DNA of 27,040 bases from Nostoc sp. DedSLP01 (GCA_034530875.2 JAVRCJ020000063.1:1-27040), one strand, 5' to 3'; shown: positions 8,888-20,969, counted from the stretch's first letter. Program-made: numbers and translations. The notes: a model not told the origin generated them from the sequence alone.

Positions 8888-9086
8888 AGCATTTATTCTG
8901 GCTCGTGGATTCTGAATTTTTTTTAAAAAATTACATTTGGAGCGAACAAAATTCACGAGTTAGGAGGCGGATATCTCCAATGGAATTGTGTGTGACTGGT
9001 AGATGAAGAAACTGGTTTAAGTTCCCTACCAAATTTAAAATTTGGTGGTCTAGAATTAATGGTGGGTTTCAATCGCCCACTAATTG

Positions 9087-9117
9087 ATTCTGAATTCTGA
9101 ATTCTGAATTCTGTATT
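9087..9117 (-). repeat. Inverted copy of the heptamer array, (ATTCTGA)n
   Basis: About four copies just upstream of mdh, opposite orientation to 8853-8887. Confidence 0.85.
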
Positions 9118-9129
9118 CTTCTTTAATTT

Positions 9130-10107
9130 ATGTCTTTTTCTTCTAACTCTCCAATTTTGTGTAATTTACCCCGTGTCACCATTGTTGGTGCGGGTAGGGT
9201 TGGGAGTACTTTAGCCCAACGCATTGCGGAGAAAAATCTGGCAGATGTAGTTTTGCTAGATATTATCCCGGGGATGCCCCAAGGTTTAGCACTGGATTTG
9301 ATTGAGGCTAGGGCAATTGAATTACATAATCGCCAGATTATTGGCACAAATAATTATGCTGATACATCTGGTTCGCAAATTGTGGTGATTACGGCAGGAA
9401 TTCCCCGAAAAACAGGGATGAGTCGGGATGATTTGCTCAAAACTAATGCCAAGATTGTAGTCGAAGCAGCAAAGAATGCGATCGCCCATTCTCCCAATGC
9501 CATTTTTATTGTCGTCACCAATCCTTTGGATGTAATGACTTATTTAGCTTGGCAAGCTACTGGTTTACCACGCAGCCGAATTATGGGTATGGCTGGTGTG
9601 TTAGATTCTGCCCGTTTTGAAACCTTCATTGCCCTAGAATTGGGGGTTTTACCTGCTGATGTCAAAGCGATGGTATTGGGTAGCCACGGCGATTTAATGG
9701 TGCCTTTGTCTCGTTATGCTACTGTTAACGGCATTCCCATTACAGAATTGCTGGATGCAGCTACAATTGCACGTTTGGTAGAAAGAACTCGCAACGGCGG
9801 TGCAGAAATTGTGGAATTGATGCAAACGGGTGGCGCTTTTTTTGCTCCTGCATCGGCTACTAGTGAGATGGTGGAATCAATTTTGTTAAATCAATCGCGA
9901 TTGTTGCCAGCCGCAGCCTATCTCCAAGGAGAATACGGTTTAAAAGATGTTGTAATTGGTGTTCCCTGTCGCTTGGGATGCGGTGGAATTGAGAGTGTCT
10001 TAGAATTAAATCTCACTGCTGAGGAAACAGAGGCTTTGCATACTTCGGCTCAATCTGTACGGAAAAATATTCAACGGGCGCACGAAATATTGACAACAGA
10101 AATTTAA
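9130..10107 (+). CDS. mdh: Malate dehydrogenase (LDH-like)
   Basis: GAGRVG, ITAGIPRKTGMSRDDLL..NA, VVTNPLD, LDSARF, GSHGD. Confidence 0.96.
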   Translation: MSFSSNSPILCNLPRVTIVGAGRVGSTLAQRIAEKNLADVVLLDIIPGMPQGLALDLIEARAIELHNRQIIGTNNYADTSGSQIVVITAGIPRKTGMSRDDLLKTNAKIVVEAAKNAIAHSPNAIFIVVTNPLDVMTYLAWQATGLPRSRIMGMAGVLDSARFETFIALELGVLPADVKAMVLGSHGDLMVPLSRYATVNGIPITELLDAATIARLVERTRNGGAEIVELMQTGGAFFAPASATSEMVESILLNQSRLLPAAAYLQGEYGLKDVVIGVPCRLGCGGIESVLELNLTAEETEALHTSAQSVRKNIQRAHEILTTEI

Positions 10108-10152
10108 CTACGTTCGATATTTTTTGTTAGTAACTTTATAAAATATTGGAAA

Positions 10153-12591
10153 TTAAATGAATTCAATATCTCCAAATAAATGTGGCGGAATCTGTTCTTT
10201 CGGTAGAAGTAAATTGTCAATCAGTTCTTCTCGCAAACCTTTAATAGTGTAGCGACTTTCTTGGATACAATCCAACAAAAGATTACTAACATAAAGGTAG
10301 TTATCTAGAGCTTTAGCATCCTCTTCCGAAAATTGCACATTATAACCAATATCTAGCTGTTCAAGCATCACATTTTGTAATTCATCTGCCCACTGTTTCC
10401 ATTCTAAGGTTGGACTATTATTAGCAGGTTGACGAGATTGTAAAAATTTTAGGGCATCTGCTAAATTAGCATTACTATTTTCTAGTGCGATATTAATTGT
10501 TTCCTGTAATTTAGATTCAAAAGTAAAATTCTCATCAACCTCTAGACGGGTTTGAATAAATTTACTAGATTCATAAATTTTCCAGCTTCTCTTTGATGCT
10601 TTATCGCTAGCAAAACTATGTATAATTGATAAATTTTTTGCAAGTAAATCTTTAAAATTGCTAAGAATAATTTTATCATATTTTTTATTAATTTCTCTCA
10701 GTTTTATAGACAAGCTTTCGGCAGTACTACGGTCTATATTTATGTCATTATCAATATATAAATCTATATCTAAATCTATTGTTAAGTAAAAAGCTCTCCA
10801 CGAAGCAGACGAAAGCTCTAGTGTTTTTGTTGTTAGTTTATATAGCCATTTCAGCATTTTTTGTAATTCATCGTTTTTAACTAGTTCATTTGCATAGTAA
10901 AAAATTAATTTTATAAAATCGTCAGCATCAGCTTTTGGCAATCGACAAGCAATAATGACAAATACTTCTCGCCAATGGCAATCTGTTAAATGTTCTTTTG
11001 TAATTTGCTTTAAGAGTCCAGGAACACGGCTTTCATATATATATTGGGCAGTAAAATACTCCTGAAAAGTTAAATGCGAAAAAGCATAAATTCCTTGAGC
11101 CGCTTCAGCAATCAGACCATGATGTGTTTCAAGAGATTTCAAAAATAATTGGCTATCCTCATCTAAGTTTTGAGGCTCAAACCCATCAATATTTTCAAGA
11201 AATTTACGAATTTTTGCTCCTAGTTCAAACTTATGCCAAAAGTATTTTTGTGGTTTTTGAATAAATGCATCATAGGCTATTTCTGCCAAAATATTAATTT
11301 TAAGATGGCGTGAGAGTTTGTCTGAAGAAGTTGTGTCATGTTGGATTTTACGACTAGTATCCCACCTTTTTAATAGTACTTCTACTGCATCTTGATACAA
11401 TTGATATCTATTTATAGGTAAATCATAATTATCTCCAGCAACCAAGCATAATAAAGTTAGCAATAATGGATTCTTTGCTAAGTCTTTGATAGATGGATTT
11501 GCATTCAGTTTACGCAAAAAATTCTCTAGTTTATCCTTATTTTGGCTTTGCTTAAACCATTGATTTATGAAGCTTTCTATTTCTTCATCGTTAAAATCTG
11601 CTATCTCTACTTCGGCAAATTCTTTAAAAACATATTCACAGGCTCCATGACGGCAAGTAATAATCATCTGATTTCTACTATACCTTTCATTCAAATCCTC
11701 AATACTTTTATATATATCATAAGTATCTCTAGCTAAAACTTCATCTAAACCATCTAATAAAATCAAGCATTTACCCTTGTCCAAGTAGTCTAAAATCAAC
11801 TGGTCTACATCCTTCCGAATATGTTTTACTTCATCAGGAATCCATTTAGCAAACTCTTGAAGAATACAATTAATTAAGTTTTGTTTATTTTCAGATTCTG
11901 CAAATTTTTTTAGAGATATAAAAAACGGTAAAGGTTTTTCTGATGTATCTTCTTCAGTAAATCCATGCATAGCTATATACTTTAAAAAAGTAGTTTTACC
12001 TGCACCTGCCATTCCCCATATCATCAGCTTGTTATGTTTTTTTACTACGTCTAATCCTGGAATTCCTTTTTCGTGGACTACCTGGCCAAATCTGTTACAA
12101 TCTAGCTTATTATCTTCTAATTCTTGTATACTTGTTACTCGCCTTCCTTTGATACTTTCGATAATATTCACTTTGATAAAAATATCATCTAAATCAATAG
12201 GTTCTCTCATTGATAATATTTTTACAGTTTTACATTCCTTCGTCAGATGTGCTAAATAAGATTCATAAGAATGTAACCAGCTTTTTTGGACAAATGTAGT
12301 TGGTGTAGTTACAGGAGCAAATTTTTTGACTGCTTGTTGATAACTTTTACATCCTTCTAGTAAAACATTACATAAGTAATTAAGATTTTTCTCCTGCATA
12401 TTTGGTGTAGCATTGGAATTGAAAAAATTACGTATTGTTCTCTCTGAAATCAGATGCTCGTCTTTAGCAAGGTAATGTGGAGACTGGGAGTCAAGTTTTA
12501 ACATGAGAACCGTAGGAGAACCACCACATTTTTCGCTATAGGCGTGTTTTAGCTCATTAAAAACTTGCCGATCGACTTGAATTGCTGCCAT
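10153..12591 (-). CDS. NACHT (STAND) NTPase with N-terminal HTH-like domain and C-terminal helical (NCH2-like) domain
   Basis: Walker A GMAGAGKTT, Walker B LILLDGLDEV, ITCR, NPLLL, FSHLTFQEYFTA, WREV; N-terminal ISERTIRNFFN helix; C-terminal W..W...L....DIGY...FSEED...L.NYL. Confidence 0.92.
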   Translation of the reverse strand: MAAIQVDRQVFNELKHAYSEKCGGSPTVLMLKLDSQSPHYLAKDEHLISERTIRNFFNSNATPNMQEKNLNYLCNVLLEGCKSYQQAVKKFAPVTTPTTFVQKSWLHSYESYLAHLTKECKTVKILSMREPIDLDDIFIKVNIIESIKGRRVTSIQELEDNKLDCNRFGQVVHEKGIPGLDVVKKHNKLMIWGMAGAGKTTFLKYIAMHGFTEEDTSEKPLPFFISLKKFAESENKQNLINCILQEFAKWIPDEVKHIRKDVDQLILDYLDKGKCLILLDGLDEVLARDTYDIYKSIEDLNERYSRNQMIITCRHGACEYVFKEFAEVEIADFNDEEIESFINQWFKQSQNKDKLENFLRKLNANPSIKDLAKNPLLLTLLCLVAGDNYDLPINRYQLYQDAVEVLLKRWDTSRKIQHDTTSSDKLSRHLKINILAEIAYDAFIQKPQKYFWHKFELGAKIRKFLENIDGFEPQNLDEDSQLFLKSLETHHGLIAEAAQGIYAFSHLTFQEYFTAQYIYESRVPGLLKQITKEHLTDCHWREVFVIIACRLPKADADDFIKLIFYYANELVKNDELQKMLKWLYKLTTKTLELSSASWRAFYLTIDLDIDLYIDNDINIDRSTAESLSIKLREINKKYDKIILSNFKDLLAKNLSIIHSFASDKASKRSWKIYESSKFIQTRLEVDENFTFESKLQETINIALENSNANLADALKFLQSRQPANNSPTLEWKQWADELQNVMLEQLDIGYNVQFSEEDAKALDNYLYVSNLLLDCIQESRYTIKGLREELIDNLLLPKEQIPPHLFGDIEFI

Positions 12592-12823
12592 TTATAACCT
12601 CTTATAATGTGCTAGTTTTCTCAAACTGTATTACTATAAAATTAATATGGTAATCCTATCTAATTTATGAGAATTCAAATCTGAGAAATAAGAATGTTAT
12701 TTCTCAGGAATAAAGATTTGCTATATAGGAATTAATTTATTCTCAAAAAAATTAATACTTCAAGCTAACTTTCAACACTGGCTAATCTTCTATGATAAAG
12801 CTAAAAAGTATGCTTTATATAAA

Positions 12824-12853
12824 ATTGCCGTTTATTACCGCTTATTGCCGCTA
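12824..12853. promoter_or_regulatory. Three 10-bp-phased direct repeats ATT(G/A)CCG, candidate operator
   Basis: attgccgttt-attaccgctt-attgccgcta, about 230 bp upstream of the NACHT start. Confidence 0.65.
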
Positions 12854-12891
12854 AATGCTTTGAAACTTTGGGAGAAATGTTTGATTAAATT

Positions 12892-12918
12892 AAAAAACCC
12901 CCAGTATTTGCTGGAGGT
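12892..12918 (-). terminator. Intrinsic terminator after the 70-aa ORF
   Basis: Minus strand ACCUCCAG-caaaua-CUGGGGGU then UUUUU. Confidence 0.7.
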
Positions 12919-12954
12919 AGTAGTTTAATAGAGAATCCAAAGTTGATTGTTGCT

Positions 12955-13167
12955 TTAGTTTTTACCAGCTTTTTCCCGAATTGCTGGGATTAAGACCTGA
13001 ATTAGCCCAGTTACTGCTCGCAATAAAATCGCAGTTGCAATCATAAAGCTGACTGTACTATTAGTTGGCAACTCGTGTATCGGTTCTGTTGGTAAAGATG
13101 GTGAAATACAGGAATCTATTTCTATACATGTATTAAGGTTCGTTTGCTGTTCTTCGTTGTTAAGCAT
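12955..13167 (-). CDS. 70-aa small protein with a C-terminal hydrophobic helix
   Basis: GAGGA Shine-Dalgarno before ATG 13167; FMIATAILLRAVTGLIQVLIPAI then basic tail REKAGKN; terminator downstream. Confidence 0.7.
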   Translation of the reverse strand: MLNNEEQQTNLNTCIEIDSCISPSLPTEPIHELPTNSTVSFMIATAILLRAVTGLIQVLIPAIREKAGKN

Positions 13168-13195
13168 TGTGATTTCCTCTTGAGGATTAAAGCGC

Positions 13196-13306
13196 AAACC
13201 CAGAGGAATTCCATATCATATTCTAAGAAGTATGATAACCTTGAAATTAGATAATAAAGTTAGTGGTCTAGGAAGCCTCTGGGTTTCAACCTAGGCCATT
13301 TTTTTT
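13196..13306. promoter_or_regulatory. Structured leader or antisense RNA region with competing stems
   Basis: aaacccagagg 13196-13206 / cctctgggttt 13276-13286; tatcata 13214-13220 / tatgata 13231-13237; tggtctagg 13264-13272 / cctaggcca 13290-13298 followed by T8. Confidence 0.6.
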
Positions 13307-13518
13307 CCCCTTGAATATAGTATTACAGAGCATAACGGCATTCCAGATGTGTATTAACAGGTAATACGAGTGAAATTAACGGAATTTTAGTGTCTTAAGC
13401 TACTAAGTTTTACACTCATTTTTTAGAGTTATTTTTTTAGTACTAAGCCTTCTATCTTTTTGCTTAATTAATTAAAATTTATCCTATCTCTAAAGATTGA
13501 AAACCATTTATTACTTGA

Positions 13519-13628
13519 TATAGGAATCCAATTTGATTTTAAAATCACTCCTACAGAGAGGGAACCGAGAACAGTAAAAAGTAATAAAGGTGTACTTAGC
13601 TTCCCAACAATCAAATATTAGCCCTATA
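13519..13628. mobile_element. Decayed MITE-like short element
   Basis: Imperfect terminal inverted repeats tataggaatccaatttgatt / aatcaaatattagccctata; a similar end (tcaaataagattgctata) occurs near 20263-20280. Confidence 0.45.
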
Positions 13629-13917
13629 GTAAGCTCGTTACATAGATAGACAAAATTAAAGTATCAGAACAAAGACTAAGGGCTAATAAAAGTTCTCTTT
13701 TTTGCCCTCTGTCTTGTCTGAACACTAAATATTAACATCAATATACTCTCGCAAGAGTAGGAGAAGCATCTTAAAGTACAGGCGTTACGTATATGTAACA
13801 AAAAATAAACCATATAGGACATAAAAGACACGGAGAAATTAGAGTTTTCTAGTGTTATTGCTTAAGCCCTAAAGTAAAAAAAATACTTGGTTTTCTTCTT
13901 TATTAGTTGATTGTTTT

Positions 13918-14097
13918 TTACTTGTCGAGTGCAATCTGTTTAGCAGATGTTATACTCTCATTCTCTTGGTCTTCAAGATGTCCAAAATAATTCTTTGCTA
14001 ATAAATCTTCCCCACAACAGCCGTCTTTCCATCTGTCGCCTGCCTTATGTTTGCATACATTTTTAACCAGACTTTTATTTATAGGAGTTTGGCTCAT
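13918..14097 (-). CDS. 59-aa Cys/His-containing small protein, not in the ORF track
   Basis: MSQTPINKSLVKNVCKHKAGDRWKDGCCGEDLLAKNYFGHLEDQENESITSAKQIALDK*; GAGGT Shine-Dalgarno and TATACT -10 (14139-14144) upstream. Confidence 0.6.
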   Translation of the reverse strand: MSQTPINKSLVKNVCKHKAGDRWKDGCCGEDLLAKNYFGHLEDQENESITSAKQIALDK

Positions 14098-14150
14098 GGT
14101 TACTTACCTCTGTGACTTAGAAATGTCTCAATCCAAAAAGTATACATTTA

Positions 14151-14202
14151 AACGGTAATAAGCGGCAATTAGCGGCAATATTGCAATATTTTAAGCGGTT
14201 TT
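14151..14202. promoter_or_regulatory. Three 10-bp-phased CGG(C/T)AAT repeats plus one partial copy, inverted relative to 12824-12853
   Basis: aacggtaata-agcggcaatt-agcggcaata ... aagcggtt, immediately upstream of the TATACT -10. Confidence 0.65.
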
Positions 14203-14273
14203 TTAGAGACAAAAATTATGTATTTTTAGTAGTATATTTTACATAAATACTGTAATAAGCAGTTTTTATAAAT

Positions 14274-14312
14274 AAAAAAAGGTAGTAACATTAACTGCTA
14301 CTGCCTTTTTTT
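14274..14312. terminator. Bidirectional-type intrinsic terminator
   Basis: A7-ggtagtaaca-ttaac-tgctactgcc-T run, downstream of the 14351-14620 gene. Confidence 0.6.
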
Positions 14313-14350
14313 AAAGTTATTCTTGTAATTTCTTACTGCATCAACTGTTA

Positions 14351-14620
14351 CTAACGATTGTATTCATCTGCGGGGTCGCCGTAGGGGTCTTCGCTGGCTG
14401 GGCGGACATCGCCGTAAGATGCTATATCTGCGGGGTCGCCGTAAGGGTCTTCGCTGGCTGGGCGAACATCGCCGTAAGATGCTATATCTGCGGGGTCGCC
14501 GTAGGGGTCTTCGCTAGCTGGGCGGACATTGCGATCGCGGTATTCTTTATCTAGTTCGCCTTGGTCGTTGTTCTGCCCCAAGAGGAAATCTTTCGCCTTT
14601 CGCAAAAAGTCATCTACCAT
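14351..14620 (-). CDS. Small acidic repeat protein (3x VRPASEDPYGDPAD)
   Basis: AGGAG before ATG; 20-aa in-frame repeats. Confidence 0.85.
   Translation of the reverse strand: MVDDFLRKAKDFLLGQNNDQGELDKEYRDRNVRPASEDPYGDPADIASYGDVRPASEDPYGDPADIASYGDVRPASEDPYGDPADEYNR
14366..14529. repeat. 60-bp coding tandem repeat, about 2.7 copies
   Basis: Units start at 14366, 14426 and 14486 and are nearly identical. Confidence 0.92.
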
Positions 14621-15515: not shown

Positions 15516-16175
15516 ATGACATCAAAAAATACAACCCAAACCAAAACCCGCGTGCTGTTAGCTTTGTGGGATTTGGGAGGAATTGGGCAGCAAGTGAGTA
15601 AAGGTTTACTCACGAAACGAATTGTATCCAAAAATAAAAAGGTAGCAGATTATCAAGGCATATTCGAGGAATTACAGAGCCAAGGAGCGATCGCTATTTC
15701 CAAAAAGGGATATTCTCTGATATCTCCCAAGGGTTTGGAGGTATTGGGTGATGGTTTGAGGAGTGATGATTTTAAATTTGAGGGGACGATTGTCGGAACT
15801 TGGGCGGCGAATGCGTTGGTTAAGTGGATTAGTCAGATTAATGTTGCGGTTACTAGGACAGATGTAGCGGTTAATGGGAAGAGTGGGGCGATCGCTTCTT
15901 ATGACGAGTTTAAATCTGTGGCGTTGGAAGTCTACGACAAGTTGAACTATGAGTACAACTTTAATAATTTAGTGCCAATTTATCGCATTAGGAGAGAAAT
16001 CGGCGATCGGGTTAATCGTACAGAGTTTAATGATTGGCTACTCGAAACACAAGCCGATGATATTTTGCAACTACAAGGTGGGAGTGTAGAAGACAGCGCA
16101 CCTGACAAAATTGAAGATTCGGTAACTACAGAATTAGATGGATTACGCTGCTACGCCACACGTCTGCAACCTTAA
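15516..16175 (+). CDS. Putative tandem winged-helix DNA-binding protein (C-terminus recalls RcaD-family proteins)
   Basis: N-terminal RVLLALWDL...FEELQSQGAIAI...SPKGLEVL; C-terminal LVPIYRIRREIG...RTEFNDWLLETQADDILQL; first gene of an operon. Confidence 0.7.
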   Translation: MTSKNTTQTKTRVLLALWDLGGIGQQVSKGLLTKRIVSKNKKVADYQGIFEELQSQGAIAISKKGYSLISPKGLEVLGDGLRSDDFKFEGTIVGTWAANALVKWISQINVAVTRTDVAVNGKSGAIASYDEFKSVALEVYDKLNYEYNFNNLVPIYRIRREIGDRVNRTEFNDWLLETQADDILQLQGGSVEDSAPDKIEDSVTTELDGLRCYATRLQP

Positions 16176-16216
16176 ACCTTATTTAGCTTTTCACATAATA
16201 TTAACTTCACAAAATT

Positions 16217-18121
16217 ATGGCTGTTAGCACATCTACCATTGACGATCTGATTAGAAATCAAAACCCTTTTGCTGGGCATATTGTGGTCAGACCACAACAA
16301 ATCTGGGGTAAAAGCTTTCCTGATGTGCCTTCAATTAATGCTTACGTGTCTAATTCAGTTTTTGATGCCGTTGAGAAAGTCCGTAAAGGTAAACGTGAAA
16401 CTGTCGGTATCACAATCACAGCAGAAAAAGGCTTAGGTAAAAGCCATATTATTAGCCGGATTCGCCACCGCTTAAAGACAGAAGATGGCAGCTTATTTAT
16501 TTATATGAGTAAGTATGACAATCTGAACCAAATTAAATATCAATTTCTCCAAACAGTCGCCTCTAGCCTTAGAGCATTTGGAAGCCAAGATTTAATGCAA
16601 TGGCAAGAGGTTGCCGCAGCTTTAATTAACGAAGTAAAGCAATGGAATTATACACCACAACAATATATTAGTATGTATCCTAGTTGGTTAAGCAAATACT
16701 CAACTAAGGCTATAGATCATTTAACAGAAATTGTTTTGAAACTTAAGCCTGAAATAACCAACCCTTACATAGCGAGAGCAATTTTATGGACACTATCTAC
16801 AGTCCATGCTAATTTTGCAACCTACTGGCTATCTGGTTTGGAATTAACACAAACGCAAGCTGAAGCTATGGGATTACCTAATCCTAAAAGTGAGGATAGA
16901 GAAGCTGAAGCATTAAGTACTGTTCGTCAAATTCTAGATATTACTAGTCATTATCGAGTTCCAGTGATTTGTTTTGATGAATTAGATATTACAGATGCTG
17001 CTGATAATGGATTTTTAGCAGCACAAGTTGTCGCAAGCTTAGTTAAGGATTTATATAACAGCCTTAAACAAGGTGTTCTGGTCTTAGCGATGTATCCTCG
17101 TACTTGGGAAGACCAAATCAAGGCTTTGCCAGAAGCTGAAGCAGTTATAGATAGATTAGTAAGCGAGCAAACTGACAGACAGCCTATCAAATTAAGCTTT
17201 CTTAATTCTGATGATATTGTTGCTTTAGTGAGCCGATGGTTACAAGATTTTTATGATGAACATCAACAAACACCGCCTCATCCTGTCTACCCCTTTGATG
17301 AAATTAAACTCAGAGAACTTGGTAAGAGCAGACCAACTGTTAGATCGGTTTTAAAATGGTGTGCAGAAAACTTCATACCTCCTTTATCTCCAATTGAAGA
17401 AATATTACCTCCTCCGCCACCGCCTGGGCTAATATTGGGTCTACCACCACATGCGGTTCAACCATACTTCAATAATGAATTAGCAAATTTTGAGGCTTCT
17501 ATTGATTCATTAATGGAAGAAGATGCAACAATTGCTGAAGCTCTTTGGCTAGCTTTCAATAGTTTAATAGGTGAAACTTTAGAGGGAGTAACAATTAAAG
17601 ATATTGAAGAAATTGAAACTAGTGCAGGAGATAAGGGTTTTATTGATTTCAGAATCGTTGGCAATAATAGGAAGGTTAAGATCGGAGTAAGTGTAGTTCA
17701 GCAAGATGGCAAGTTTATAGGTGCTGCCTTAAATCGATTAATAGACTATAGAAAGTTTGATTTAACTCGCGGTTGCTTAGTTCGTTCAAAGAAGATTAAG
17801 CCGGGTGCAGGATTAGCTAGAGAACGTTTAAGAATACTGTTGAAAGAAAAGGGTGGAGAGTGGGTGGGCTTGCAAAGCCAAGATATTAAACCTCTTTTAG
17901 CTATCTATTTTGTTTGGTATAACAGAGATAGTTATCAAGTGACAGAAGAACAAATATTTGAATTTATTGAGCAAAAAAAATTAGCAATCAATAATCCTTT
18001 AATTCGAGAAATTCTCAGCGATCCTTCTGGGCAAGAACCTACTAATTTAACTGATGATGAATTACCTATTAGGATTCCTCAAAGTGTTACTACTACCGAT
18101 TATGTCGAACTAAATCTATAA
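16217..18121 (+). CDS. P-loop (AAA/STAND-like) ATPase
   Basis: Walker A AEKGLGKSH, Walker B VICFDELD, YPF...RPTVRSVL motif, poly-Pro linker, separate C-terminal domain. Confidence 0.85.
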   Translation: MAVSTSTIDDLIRNQNPFAGHIVVRPQQIWGKSFPDVPSINAYVSNSVFDAVEKVRKGKRETVGITITAEKGLGKSHIISRIRHRLKTEDGSLFIYMSKYDNLNQIKYQFLQTVASSLRAFGSQDLMQWQEVAAALINEVKQWNYTPQQYISMYPSWLSKYSTKAIDHLTEIVLKLKPEITNPYIARAILWTLSTVHANFATYWLSGLELTQTQAEAMGLPNPKSEDREAEALSTVRQILDITSHYRVPVICFDELDITDAADNGFLAAQVVASLVKDLYNSLKQGVLVLAMYPRTWEDQIKALPEAEAVIDRLVSEQTDRQPIKLSFLNSDDIVALVSRWLQDFYDEHQQTPPHPVYPFDEIKLRELGKSRPTVRSVLKWCAENFIPPLSPIEEILPPPPPPGLILGLPPHAVQPYFNNELANFEASIDSLMEEDATIAEALWLAFNSLIGETLEGVTIKDIEEIETSAGDKGFIDFRIVGNNRKVKIGVSVVQQDGKFIGAALNRLIDYRKFDLTRGCLVRSKKIKPGAGLARERLRILLKEKGGEWVGLQSQDIKPLLAIYFVWYNRDSYQVTEEQIFEFIEQKKLAINNPLIREILSDPSGQEPTNLTDDELPIRIPQSVTTTDYVELNL

Positions 18122-18132
18122 CTAAATTACAA

Positions 18133-19515
18133 ATGAATCAGCTGTTCTCAATTCCAACAGCACTATGTCTACCTGCCCCTGATATTGAAGCTTTAATACA
18201 GGGGCGAACAATTGCAGCTTTACCTAAGATGTTTATTCGTCCTGGGCAAAGATTTGCACTTTATCCTAATGAGTCTTCAGTTTCAATTAAAGCTTGGGCT
18301 AAATGCGAACTTTGTCAGATTTTAGACGAGAGTAAGCCATTAGATATTTTGTCAAAATTAACAATATGGACACCACAAAGACTAAAAGAGATACTACAGC
18401 AACAGCAGTACCTTTTTTTAACTTATTTACGTGTCTATCAGTTACCTCAGTTACAAGAAATACCAGTTAATTCTAGTATTCAAGAAAAGTTAGGAAAATT
18501 TGTTAGTTTACCTAATCCTTTAAAGGTTTCTGAAGACAAGCCAATTTTAAACGATCGCACTTTCGCCCAACGCAAGCATCAACTAGAAAACTTACAGCCA
18601 CCACTGTATCCTGAACTGGAAGAATTACAAAGTGCGATTGCCTCGCTAACCAGTAACCAACCAGCAGCTAAACAATTAGATAATGATATCAAAGTATTTT
18701 TAGGTTGGAGTAGTAACAAGTTAATTAAACAACCCGATGCAAGTTTAGCTTGGATAGATGATATCGCAAAATTAGGCGATCGCAGCATAGAGTTAGATGA
18801 GAAAAAAAGCAACTACCAAGCTGGTACAGATTTTGAAAATATCGCACGTCAAAGTCTGGAATTTTTAGGCTTCAAAGTTGAAAGTGCTTTCAAAGGTGGC
18901 GCTGGAGGCTTAGATTTATATTGTTCAAAACCTTACCCTATTGTTTGCGAGTGTAAGGCGGGTAAGCTCATTCCGAGTCGTACTGTTGAGGAATTACTCA
19001 AACTTGGTGGAATGCACTTAGGTAAAACTCAACTATTAACTTCAGCTAAGTTAGTAATTGGCCCTGGTAATCCATCTCCAGATACACTAAAAGCCGCTAA
19101 AGAGTGGGAAGTAAGTATTATTAATGCTATGACTCTACAAAAGCTCGTTGAATTCCAAGCAAAATATCCAGGCGCTATTAATTTAGTAGAATTACAGCAA
19201 TATCTCAAACCTGGGCAGATTGACTATAAAATTGATGAATATATTGATAAAGCTGAGAGAGAAATTCAATTGCGATCGCACATTATCCAGCTTGTCAAAA
19301 ATTATCTAGAAAACTCAGGTATAGAATCTGCTGGTGTTGAATCTCTACATGGTGCTTATTTCGGTTCGCATCCACCACAGCCACTAAAAACAACAGAAAT
19401 GTATGAAATTCTGATAGAGCTTTCTTCGCCCTTAACAGGTTATTTAGGACGAATTAAAGGTAGTGATTGGAAGAGCGATCGCTTTTACTTTCTACGCAAT
19501 TTACTTATTAACTAA
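18133..19515 (+). CDS. DUF1802-like N-terminal domain fused to a PD-(D/E)xK (Mrr-like) restriction endonuclease domain
   Basis: DIEALIQGRTI...FALYP...IKAWAKC...LRVYQLP; GTDFENIARQSLEFLGF...GGLDLYC...CECKAG catalytic pattern. Confidence 0.8.
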   Translation: MNQLFSIPTALCLPAPDIEALIQGRTIAALPKMFIRPGQRFALYPNESSVSIKAWAKCELCQILDESKPLDILSKLTIWTPQRLKEILQQQQYLFLTYLRVYQLPQLQEIPVNSSIQEKLGKFVSLPNPLKVSEDKPILNDRTFAQRKHQLENLQPPLYPELEELQSAIASLTSNQPAAKQLDNDIKVFLGWSSNKLIKQPDASLAWIDDIAKLGDRSIELDEKKSNYQAGTDFENIARQSLEFLGFKVESAFKGGAGGLDLYCSKPYPIVCECKAGKLIPSRTVEELLKLGGMHLGKTQLLTSAKLVIGPGNPSPDTLKAAKEWEVSIINAMTLQKLVEFQAKYPGAINLVELQQYLKPGQIDYKIDEYIDKAEREIQLRSHIIQLVKNYLENSGIESAGVESLHGAYFGSHPPQPLKTTEMYEILIELSSPLTGYLGRIKGSDWKSDRFYFLRNLLIN

Positions 19516-20309: not shown

Positions 20310-20969
20310 ATGTACTATCAAATTTGGAATTTCTTCCTTCAAGAGGATAAATATAATTATTGGAAAGATACAATAAAAATTAATAAAAGTTTTAATAGGG
20401 TTACTTGGCAAAAAGTTATTGACTTTTTGTCATTGGTAGAGCAAACTTTCGCCCTGAAATATCAACTTGGAGAAACTGATAATCTAGAGCCATTTCTTAA
20501 ATTAGCAAGAGAAAATGGTTACAATCTCACTGCCCAAGAACTTGCGTGGTTTTTAATTACCAGAAAACAGATTTGGGATCTTTTTGATTTTGCACAAAAA
20601 ACGCCATCTCTTAAAGAACAATTACTAACAGCTAAAAGTCCACAACATTTTGTCAATATAGCTGCCGATAATGGCTATTACTTTTCTGTAGAAGAATTAG
20701 CTTGGTTGTTAACTGAAATCAAATCCTCGTCGGAATTAGTATCGATTAATAACAGCGTTGGCGAGATTCTGACGGTATCGAATTACGGCAGAATTGAAAC
20801 AGGATATTGGATTTGGTTGGCAGAAGACTGGGGAATTGTAGCGCCATTTTGTCATCGCGATAAGCCTGGTACTTTTTTATCTCAAAATATCAGCAATCCT
20901 TTTTTACCCGATCGCTGTTTTTTACCCAAGAGCTACTTTAACCAGCGGCTAATGGCACTTAATAATTAA
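20310..20969 (+). CDS. Protein with two tandem Nif11-like leader domains
   Basis: FL..VEQT.ALKYQL.....LEPFLKLARENGYNLTAQELAWFL and LFDFAQKTPSLKEQLLTAKSPQHFVNIAADNGYYFSVEELAWLL. Confidence 0.75.
   Translation: MYYQIWNFFLQEDKYNYWKDTIKINKSFNRVTWQKVIDFLSLVEQTFALKYQLGETDNLEPFLKLARENGYNLTAQELAWFLITRKQIWDLFDFAQKTPSLKEQLLTAKSPQHFVNIAADNGYYFSVEELAWLLTEIKSSSELVSINNSVGEILTVSNYGRIETGYWIWLAEDWGIVAPFCHRDKPGTFLSQNISNPFLPDRCFLPKSYFNQRLMALNN

Follow-up and report, generated by a model that had tools for sequence, protein, structure and literature searches.

Two genes on the minus strand of a Nostoc sp. DedSLP01 contig, one for an 812-residue NACHT protein (10153-12591) and one for a 59-residue cysteine/histidine microprotein (13918-14097), form a rare paired cassette in which each gene lies downstream of three seven-base boxes repeated at exactly 10 bp. 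The contig (JAVRCJ020000063.1; 27,040 nucleotides), here called the window, is C63 of an 8.57-Mb genome (GCA_034530875.2) whose named close relatives are Nostoc-group cyanobacteria. We think it probable that the NACHT protein is an ATPase working in the manner of the cyanobacterial regulator XssQ, and that it binds the phased boxes, activates one gene, that of the microprotein, and regulates its own promoter through the inverted array. A third gene, a 70-residue open reading frame (ORF; 12955-13167), lies between the two. All features described below are on the minus strand unless stated otherwise.

Phased boxes at two promoters

Array A, found by pattern scan and by a matrix, consists of three CGG(C/T)AAT boxes with a 10-bp period upstream of the NACHT gene (12824-12850). 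It is inverted relative to array B (14153-14179; pattern scan), whose three ATT(G/A)CCG boxes, with the CGG(C/T)AAT cores reading on the plus strand, lie over the spacer and the -35 position of the microprotein promoter. A preliminary description of this DNA had reported both arrays with exact 10-bp spacing and had placed the second one over the -35 region of a TATACT promoter. Both statements were correct, and the -10 hexamer TATACT, which is also seen in homologous loci, lies at 14139-14144. The window holds four two-box matches against 0.02 expected, a number reached by none of 100 shuffles. Although the genome contains 2906 single CGG(C/T)AAT cores, all four exact two-box matches and both exact three-box arrays in it are those of arrays A and B, with 8e-5 exact three-box arrays expected genome-wide. 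Because exact arrays are confined to A and B, they are locus-specific and not a dispersed element, a reading that we rejected.

In array B, the last box ends 8 nt before the -10 and the middle box sits on the -35 position; no -35 can be recognised in the promoter other than the boxes. All 25 foreign peptide-bearing loci have three or four boxes of the ATT(G/A)CCG type that point the same way as the peptide gene, and there the spacer from the last box to the -10 is 8 nt in 18, 9 nt in 6 and 7 nt in 1, and the -10 is TATACT in 16 and TATGAT in 6. Conservation across these loci is strongest in the box at the -35 position and weakest in the last box, and the arrays are conserved beside homologues across the cyanobacterial class. 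A box matrix trained on the 25 foreign loci, with the window excluded, ranked arrays A and B first in the genome at 36.4 bits each, followed by an intragenic site at 30.6 bits. Among held-out loci, the window included, 12 of 14 scored at least 15 bits as compared with none of 3000 random 200-nt windows, and the two misses carry a T-rich periodic tract at the array position. Eight peptide loci from other orders gave three scores above 15 bits, two of 12.2 and one of 3.0; one more was T-rich and one was a broken locus.

The preliminary description had also taken the array upstream of the NACHT gene as a sign of autoregulation. Of 26 loci, 19 have a similar inverted array of at least 19 bits no more than 900 nt from the NACHT start, a score reached by 0.07% of random windows of 900 nt, which agrees with that proposal. 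Array A is probably an autoregulatory site, and array B would be the activator site. Judged by eye, the inverted array ends about 23-26 nt before a TAnnnT in most homologues, often near a TTG-like -35. In the window, the candidate -10 of the NACHT promoter, TATCAT at 12792-12797, lies 26 nt past array A and was located by eye with an anchored alignment. A reading of array A as a divergent promoter was rejected for the window, where that side has no gene and the array is not followed by a -10 (score -7.8). A terminator-like hairpin at 12897-12918, between the 70-residue ORF and array A, comes from a consensus scan only. The stretch upstream of the NACHT gene on a Leptolyngbya boryana plasmid (L112:5200-6000) is tandemly duplicated and carries many CGGCAAT boxes.

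The HTH-NACHT protein and its partner microprotein

[quoted passage not shown] The NACHT domain spans residues 190-348 (PF05729; E 1.9e-14, 54.3 bits against a cut-off of 26.7), and the NCH2 domain, a candidate sensor region, spans residues 713-797 (10201-10455; PF22727; E 3.7e-16, 59.5 bits against a cut-off of 27). Both nucleotide-binding motifs are conserved in the homologues. In Walker A (residues 193-200; 11992-12015), G193, G196, G198, K199 and T200 are invariant in 25 aligned rows, as are D280, D283 and E284 of the NACHT-type Walker B LDGLDE (residues 279-284; 11740-11757), which fits the NACHT signature D[GAS]hDE given in 10.1101/2022.07.19.500537. The full-length model (predicted local distance difference test, pLDDT, 90.3) has NLRC4 and NOD2 as its best structural matches, and it includes helical and winged-helix domains after the P-loop domain, matching NLRC4 over about 490 columns (E 2e-11). 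Domain content, Walker motifs and modelled fold point to a NACHT STAND NTPase, for which nucleotide-driven oligomerisation is predicted. The protein carries no enzymatic effector domain and no repeat sensor. A profile search of viral contigs (profile A3) found no relative, and a single-sequence scan of genome contigs gave no match.

No Pfam family matched the first 180 residues, and the N-terminal domain had no match in Pfam or NCBIfam. Residues 1-91 (12319-12591) are predicted from the model and fold search to form an XRE/Cro-C1-type HTH in which helices 2 and 3 are separated by an inserted loop. The N-terminal 100 residues modelled at a pLDDT of 80.8, and the top rows of a wide structural search (VIA) with this model were nearly all XRE-type HTH domains (Z 4.8-6.6), about 45 of the top 50 being lambda-repressor/XRE-like by title. 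The nearest folds include the repressors DdrO, SinR, ImmR, P22 c2 and 434. Foldseek gave no match to the model at E<=0.001, and the first Atlas match, 'HTH cro/C1-type' at 0.81, is a lead only. The segment ISERTIRNFFN (residues 48-58), which the preliminary description had called HTH-like, falls within this domain, which models as an XRE/Cro-type HTH with predicted DNA binding. SERTIRNFF (residues 49-57; 12421-12447) is the third helix of the model (50-58) and, from the XRE topology, the predicted recognition helix; T52, F56 and F57 are invariant in 26 rows.

The microprotein's family comprises 41 database proteins and corresponds to no Pfam entry. Its motif C-x-H-x-x-G-x-x-W-x-x-G-C-C (residues 15-28; 14014-14055) contains, over 38 aligned members, invariant C15, H17, G20, C27 and C28 together with W23 and G26 conserved in at least 90%, the remainder of the protein being variable. 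The family has no Atlas match, and scanning the 38 members in NCBIfam and Pfam gave single-member chance matches only. The ratio of non-synonymous to synonymous differences (pN/pS) is about 0.35 against two close relatives, which, together with the family and its co-occurrence with the NACHT gene, suggests that the microprotein gene is the dedicated target. As judged from the alignment, the motif is a candidate metal- or redox-binding site, and because the motif goes with tight pairing to the NACHT gene, the microprotein may be a metal- or redox-binding output or feedback partner. A complex prediction for the NACHT protein and the peptide returned a score of 0.00, an absence of an answer that is evidence neither way. 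We rejected a reading as the precursor of a ribosomally synthesised and post-translationally modified peptide, as no modifying enzyme is a regular neighbour in the gene maps viewed.

The pairing of the two genes is evident at several taxonomic depths. In 127 genomes of the genus, a profile of the N-terminal domain gave eight strong matches; the ninth, at E 9.6e-4, proved to be an XssQ-type protein. The peptide profile identified the same eight genomes at E<1e-7, on the same contig and within 5 kb of the N-terminal domain, with two further marginal matches (E>0.005). At the order level, both occur in the same 7 of 401 genomes. The peptide is present in 25 of the 27 N-terminal-domain loci fetched (24 by profile, one by ORF reading), and the two peptide-less loci end at contig edges 2.0 and 0.26 kb after the NACHT gene start. 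Starting from the peptide instead, both new loci from the same family have a NACHT gene upstream, as do four of eight from other orders at about 2.7-4.5 kb; a fifth has it on another contig, and one other-order locus has a broken peptide with no NACHT gene found. Decaying copies were seen at L037:10001-10704, where the NACHT frame ends at 234 residues with the array intact, and at L135, with a broken peptide and no NACHT gene found. The module, present in just 10 of 341 class genomes, is rare and is plasmid-borne in two taxa, the Leptolyngbya boryana plasmid carrying both genes with another gene between them. Relative to the NACHT start, the position of the peptide gene is 1.3-1.5 kb upstream in three close genomes, and in most of the others it is 2.6-4.9 kb downstream. 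The cassette is thus patchily distributed, and its two genes are paired.

A proposed switch and the surroundings of the cassette

We propose that the NACHT protein would rest autoinhibited, as STAND ATPases do, until a signal at the helical C-terminal region including NCH2 leads to ATP binding and head-to-tail oligomerisation. Three or four HTH domains would then fill successive boxes on one face of the DNA. At the peptide promoter, where boxes replace the -35 upstream of a good -10, the oligomer would recruit RNA polymerase in the manner of AfsR and SARPs (Streptomyces antibiotic regulatory proteins). At its own promoter, the inverted array ends just upstream of the -35 position and most likely damps NACHT expression. 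The microprotein, whose 3-Cys/1-His motif is its only conserved part, most likely binds metal or senses redox as an output or in feedback; this is the weakest step of the proposal.

Several observations weigh against this mechanism. XRE domains are often repressors, and boxes over the -35 and spacer suit a repressor equally well. The fold match of the N-terminal domain is middling (best Z 6.6, root-mean-square deviation 2.7, 71 residues aligned), and the tool warns that a Z below 8 may reflect a common arrangement, so the XRE-type assignment rests on the uniformity of the VIA list. Co-variation between helix and boxes, judged by eye, is suggestive only: a T-rich array goes with Gln or Glu at position 55 in three loci, and Tyr at position 54 goes with a normal box. 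In seven of 26 loci, the 900 nt next to the NACHT gene contain no strong inverted array. Many of the compared loci are close kin, and the counts therefore overstate their independence, while the pattern spans several families and orders. The order-level peptide profile contained the seven loci found with it, which leaves its absence from the other 394 genomes as the informative part. Furthermore, two genomes of one genus have an intact peptide and array and no N-terminal domain by profile A6; the peptide there lies near a contig edge, and one of the genomes is 98% complete.

The main rival concerns the sign of the control: the HTH-NACHT protein could be a repressor that covers the -35 and spacer at the promoter of the peptide gene until a signal releases it. 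The middle box does occupy the -35 position, and many of the nearest folds are repressors. However, a promoter with no recognisable -35 apart from its boxes speaks for activation, the spacer, kept strictly at 7-9 nt in 25 of 25 loci, suits polymerase contact better than occlusion, and both the closest tested relative, XssQ, and AfsR are activators. We consider repression rather unlikely. A second rival, in which some other host factor binds the arrays and these are only passengers of the cassette, seems very improbable. Binding by the NACHT protein is a prediction, and the two genomes with array and peptide in which the N-terminal domain went undetected would fit such a factor, yet a host factor should have other sites and the genome has none. 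A relaxed three-box pattern with one mismatch occurs in 105 of the 127 genus genomes and is too loose to discriminate. The 12 relaxed-pattern loci inspected, recurrent imperfect matches, were mostly inside coding genes, whereas nine of the 11 perfect matches, among the matches listed (the first 150 of 202), lie at cassette loci, and both results argue against a host factor.

If activation by the NACHT protein is accepted, a further step can be considered, namely that this factor, which resembles the nucleotide-binding leucine-rich repeat proteins (NLRs), induces a microprotein whose metal-loaded or oxidised Cys/His motif is the NLR's own dedicated ligand, acting as inhibitor or trigger. We regard this as a tentative idea that may well be wrong. 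If true, it would describe a portable pulse or on/off switch in multicellular cyanobacteria, in which an NLR writes its own regulator. Most bacterial NLR-like proteins have no known ligand or output. The predicted operator, the fixed promoter geometry and a single conserved target within 4 kb mean that a simple reporter could read NLR activation here. Three questions could then be put to the test: which signal the NCH2 region perceives, in what way helically phased DNA is read by a NACHT oligomer, and whether the purpose of such cyanobacterial NLRs is stress signalling or defence.

The preliminary description had proposed a larger regulon of three promoters, including that of the 70-residue ORF, with possible DNA looping between the inverted arrays. 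Of its two small targets, the 59-residue ORF is borne out as a conserved partner, and the 70-residue ORF (ATG at 13167, end at 12955), which has a hydrophobic C-terminal helix, appears to be accessory: it is found in 2 of 40 foreign loci, those of the closest relatives, with a weak purifying signal (pN/pS 0.52, 0.41 and 1.0 in three pairs). Looser boxes do start upstream of it at 13336, 13359 and 13380 as reported (13336-13386), but at spacings of 23 and 21 bp they are out of phase and lie 13 nt from the nearest TAnnnT; matrix scores are 9.7 and 7.4 bits for two of them and below 4 for the third. Their retention in two close relatives, the AATTCCG variant in arrays of other loci and the occurrence of XssQ boxes also 12 and 23 bp apart would favour such a regulon. 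Against this, the whole intergenic region is well conserved among these three strains, so the conservation of the boxes says little, and the order and separation of the arrays vary widely. Since the peptide-to-NACHT distance ranges between -1.5 and +4.9 kb, the anatomy gives no need for looping, and that part of the proposal is not supported. Overall, we find the three-promoter regulon distinctly unlikely. The leader of the 70-residue ORF (13165-13315) could fold into a long stem whose 11-bp core is retained by two close relatives; the leader's folding is no better than that of shuffles (z -1.36), and Rfam gave no match, its three hits being far below the gathering scores.

The cassette is an insert, approximately 10110-14340 by flank comparison and G+C content (no strand assigned), between mdh and a gene for an 89-residue protein. 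The gap between these two genes is 208-603 bp in four of four congeners checked and about 4.3 kb here. The insert of about 4.2 kb has a G+C content of 31.9% against 40.9%, and this low-GC unit is missing from all four congeners. The 89-residue protein (14351-14620) has three 20-residue acidic repeats encoded by a 60-nt tandem repeat; congeners keep its gene beside mdh, and it marks one edge of the cassette.

A low-GC, patchy insert that is plasmid-borne in two taxa raises the question of defence, in which the cassette would be the sensing and transcription arm of an anti-phage system inducing the peptide as effector or a neighbouring TIR operon. This concerns the trigger and is compatible with activation of the microprotein gene by the NACHT protein. 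In 14 of 40 loci, a WD40-TIR gene stands beside the cassette, and a nucleoside deoxyribosyltransferase-like gene does so in 8; bacterial NACHT proteins can be antiphage (10.1101/2022.07.19.500537). At L004:1113-5211 and 13 other loci, a WD40-TIR protein of about 1020 residues is accompanied by a 169-residue protein of no assigned function and the nucleoside deoxyribosyltransferase-like gene, divergent from the NACHT gene in the loci mapped, and could be an undescribed defence operon. The phage-defence role raised in the preliminary description did not find support: no PADLOC model matches the NACHT protein, the peptide or the 70-residue ORF, and the defence-model search with the NACHT protein reached 52 bits for EruA against a cut-off of 1000. 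Moreover, the WD40-TIR operon was not found in this genome, no enzymatic effector domain is present in the NACHT protein, polysaccharide synthesis is what the tested relative XssQ controls, and a cation/proton antiporter-like gene neighbours the cassette about as often (12 of 40 loci, in several genera). We judge an anti-phage role to be unlikely, while keeping it in consideration. At L005:8666-9718 and 11 other loci, the antiporter-like gene encodes a membrane protein of about 350 residues and stands between the genes for NACHT and the peptide; its presence may point to ions or pH as the signal. By eye, a HisKA-like gene neighbours the cassette in 5 of 40 loci. Neither the antiporter-like nor the HisKA-like gene was found in this genome.

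Elsewhere in the window, a short heptamer-repeat element at 8945-9130 (no strand assigned), 5' of mdh, has many dispersed copies in congeners. On the plus strand, a three-gene run at 15516-19515 encodes a 219-residue protein of no assigned function, a 634-residue P-loop ATPase with a weak Sll1717-like match, and a 460-residue protein with DUF1802 and an Mrr_cat nuclease-like domain. It resembles an unnamed defence or restriction-type operon, has no PADLOC match, and its first two genes recur at locus L095. A 219-residue protein with two Nif11 domains is encoded at 20310-20969 (plus strand).

Comparison with known regulators

MalT, to which the preliminary description had drawn a likeness, is a STAND activator that oligomerises on direct-repeat boxes and has a C-terminal LuxR-type HTH and an ATPase of a different subclade. 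The promoter spacing matches AfsR and the SARPs instead, and the MalT analogy is not needed. Streptomyces afsS, the single target gene of AfsR, is small in size. In PMC10936776, which names MalT among STAND regulators, the repeats used by SARP activators, the STAND protein AfsR included, overlap the -35 and end 8 bp before the -10. The window thus resembles the AfsR-afsS pair in its STAND protein, its repeats over the -35 and spacer with the last one 8 bp before the -10, and its single target. By contrast, AfsR as described combines a SARP domain of the OmpR type with a TPR sensor and uses 11-bp repeats, whereas an XRE-type domain, 10-bp repeats, NACHT and NCH2 are predicted or found here. No SARP-type OmpR DNA-binding plus BTA domain is present, the region before NACHT consisting of the 91-residue XRE-like domain and a linker, and the likeness is one of analogy and not of homology of the DNA-binding part.

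With the bacterial antiphage NLRs, the protein shares the NACHT module, the Walker B signature and a model closest to NLRC4 and NOD2. Unlike them, it has no enzymatic effector, no repeat sensor and no defence-model match above cut-off, and any antiphage activity is putative. The NLR preprint also lists HTH adaptors that are predicted to activate transcription (10.1101/2022.07.19.500537). The literature searched, which took in few subscription papers, gave no account of this box or peptide; the supplements (Table S1 of the NLR preprint; PMC8205485) lie outside that coverage and may list the proteins.

HTH-NACHT regulators are already known, and the preliminary description missed the experimentally shown cyanobacterial example. 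XssQ (Slr5058) of Synechocystis PCC 6803 is, according to PMC8205485, an HTH-STAND activator with binding to AAGTTxxAC boxes shown by electrophoretic mobility shift assay; it acts through single or tandem boxes 5' of nearby genes and works with XssR/XssS to control polysaccharide synthesis genes. XssQ-type homologues are treated in PMC12267927, and 10.64898/2025.12.18.694786 has XssQ-related passages. We identified XssQ by position, as the NACHT gene between a sugar transferase and a response regulator on pSYSM. Both proteins combine an N-terminal HTH with a NACHT-type STAND module in cyanobacteria, at 29% identity over residues 154-800 (E 4e-65). The XssQ N terminus, however, is not matched by the N-terminal profile of the window family, and in a quick unrooted tree of 48 rows the window protein lies outside the XssQ-type side (6 rows) of a branch with a Shimodaira-Hasegawa-like approximate likelihood ratio support of 99. 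The identity, the unmatched N terminus and the tree position together suggest a protein that works like XssQ and lies outside the XssQ group. The genome's own XssQ-type paralogue (L006, G000:C2:313500-321500) has sugar-nucleotide and glycosyltransferase-like genes around it and a single AAGTTxxAC box directly upstream of the gene divergent from it, and a profile comparison with this C2 paralogue was not significant (probability 0.4). XssR/XssS and polysaccharide genes are absent from the window ORFs and the parts of gene maps viewed, and the peptide motif is absent from the xss region. Whereas XssQ recognises AAGTTxxAC and pairs with XssR/XssS on polysaccharide genes, the present locus has ATT(G/A)CCG at a 10-bp period, no regular two-component neighbour and one microprotein target. 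The cassette defines an unnamed microprotein family and, beside XssQ, a second predicted DNA specificity that could be used as an orthogonal switch in cyanobacteria.

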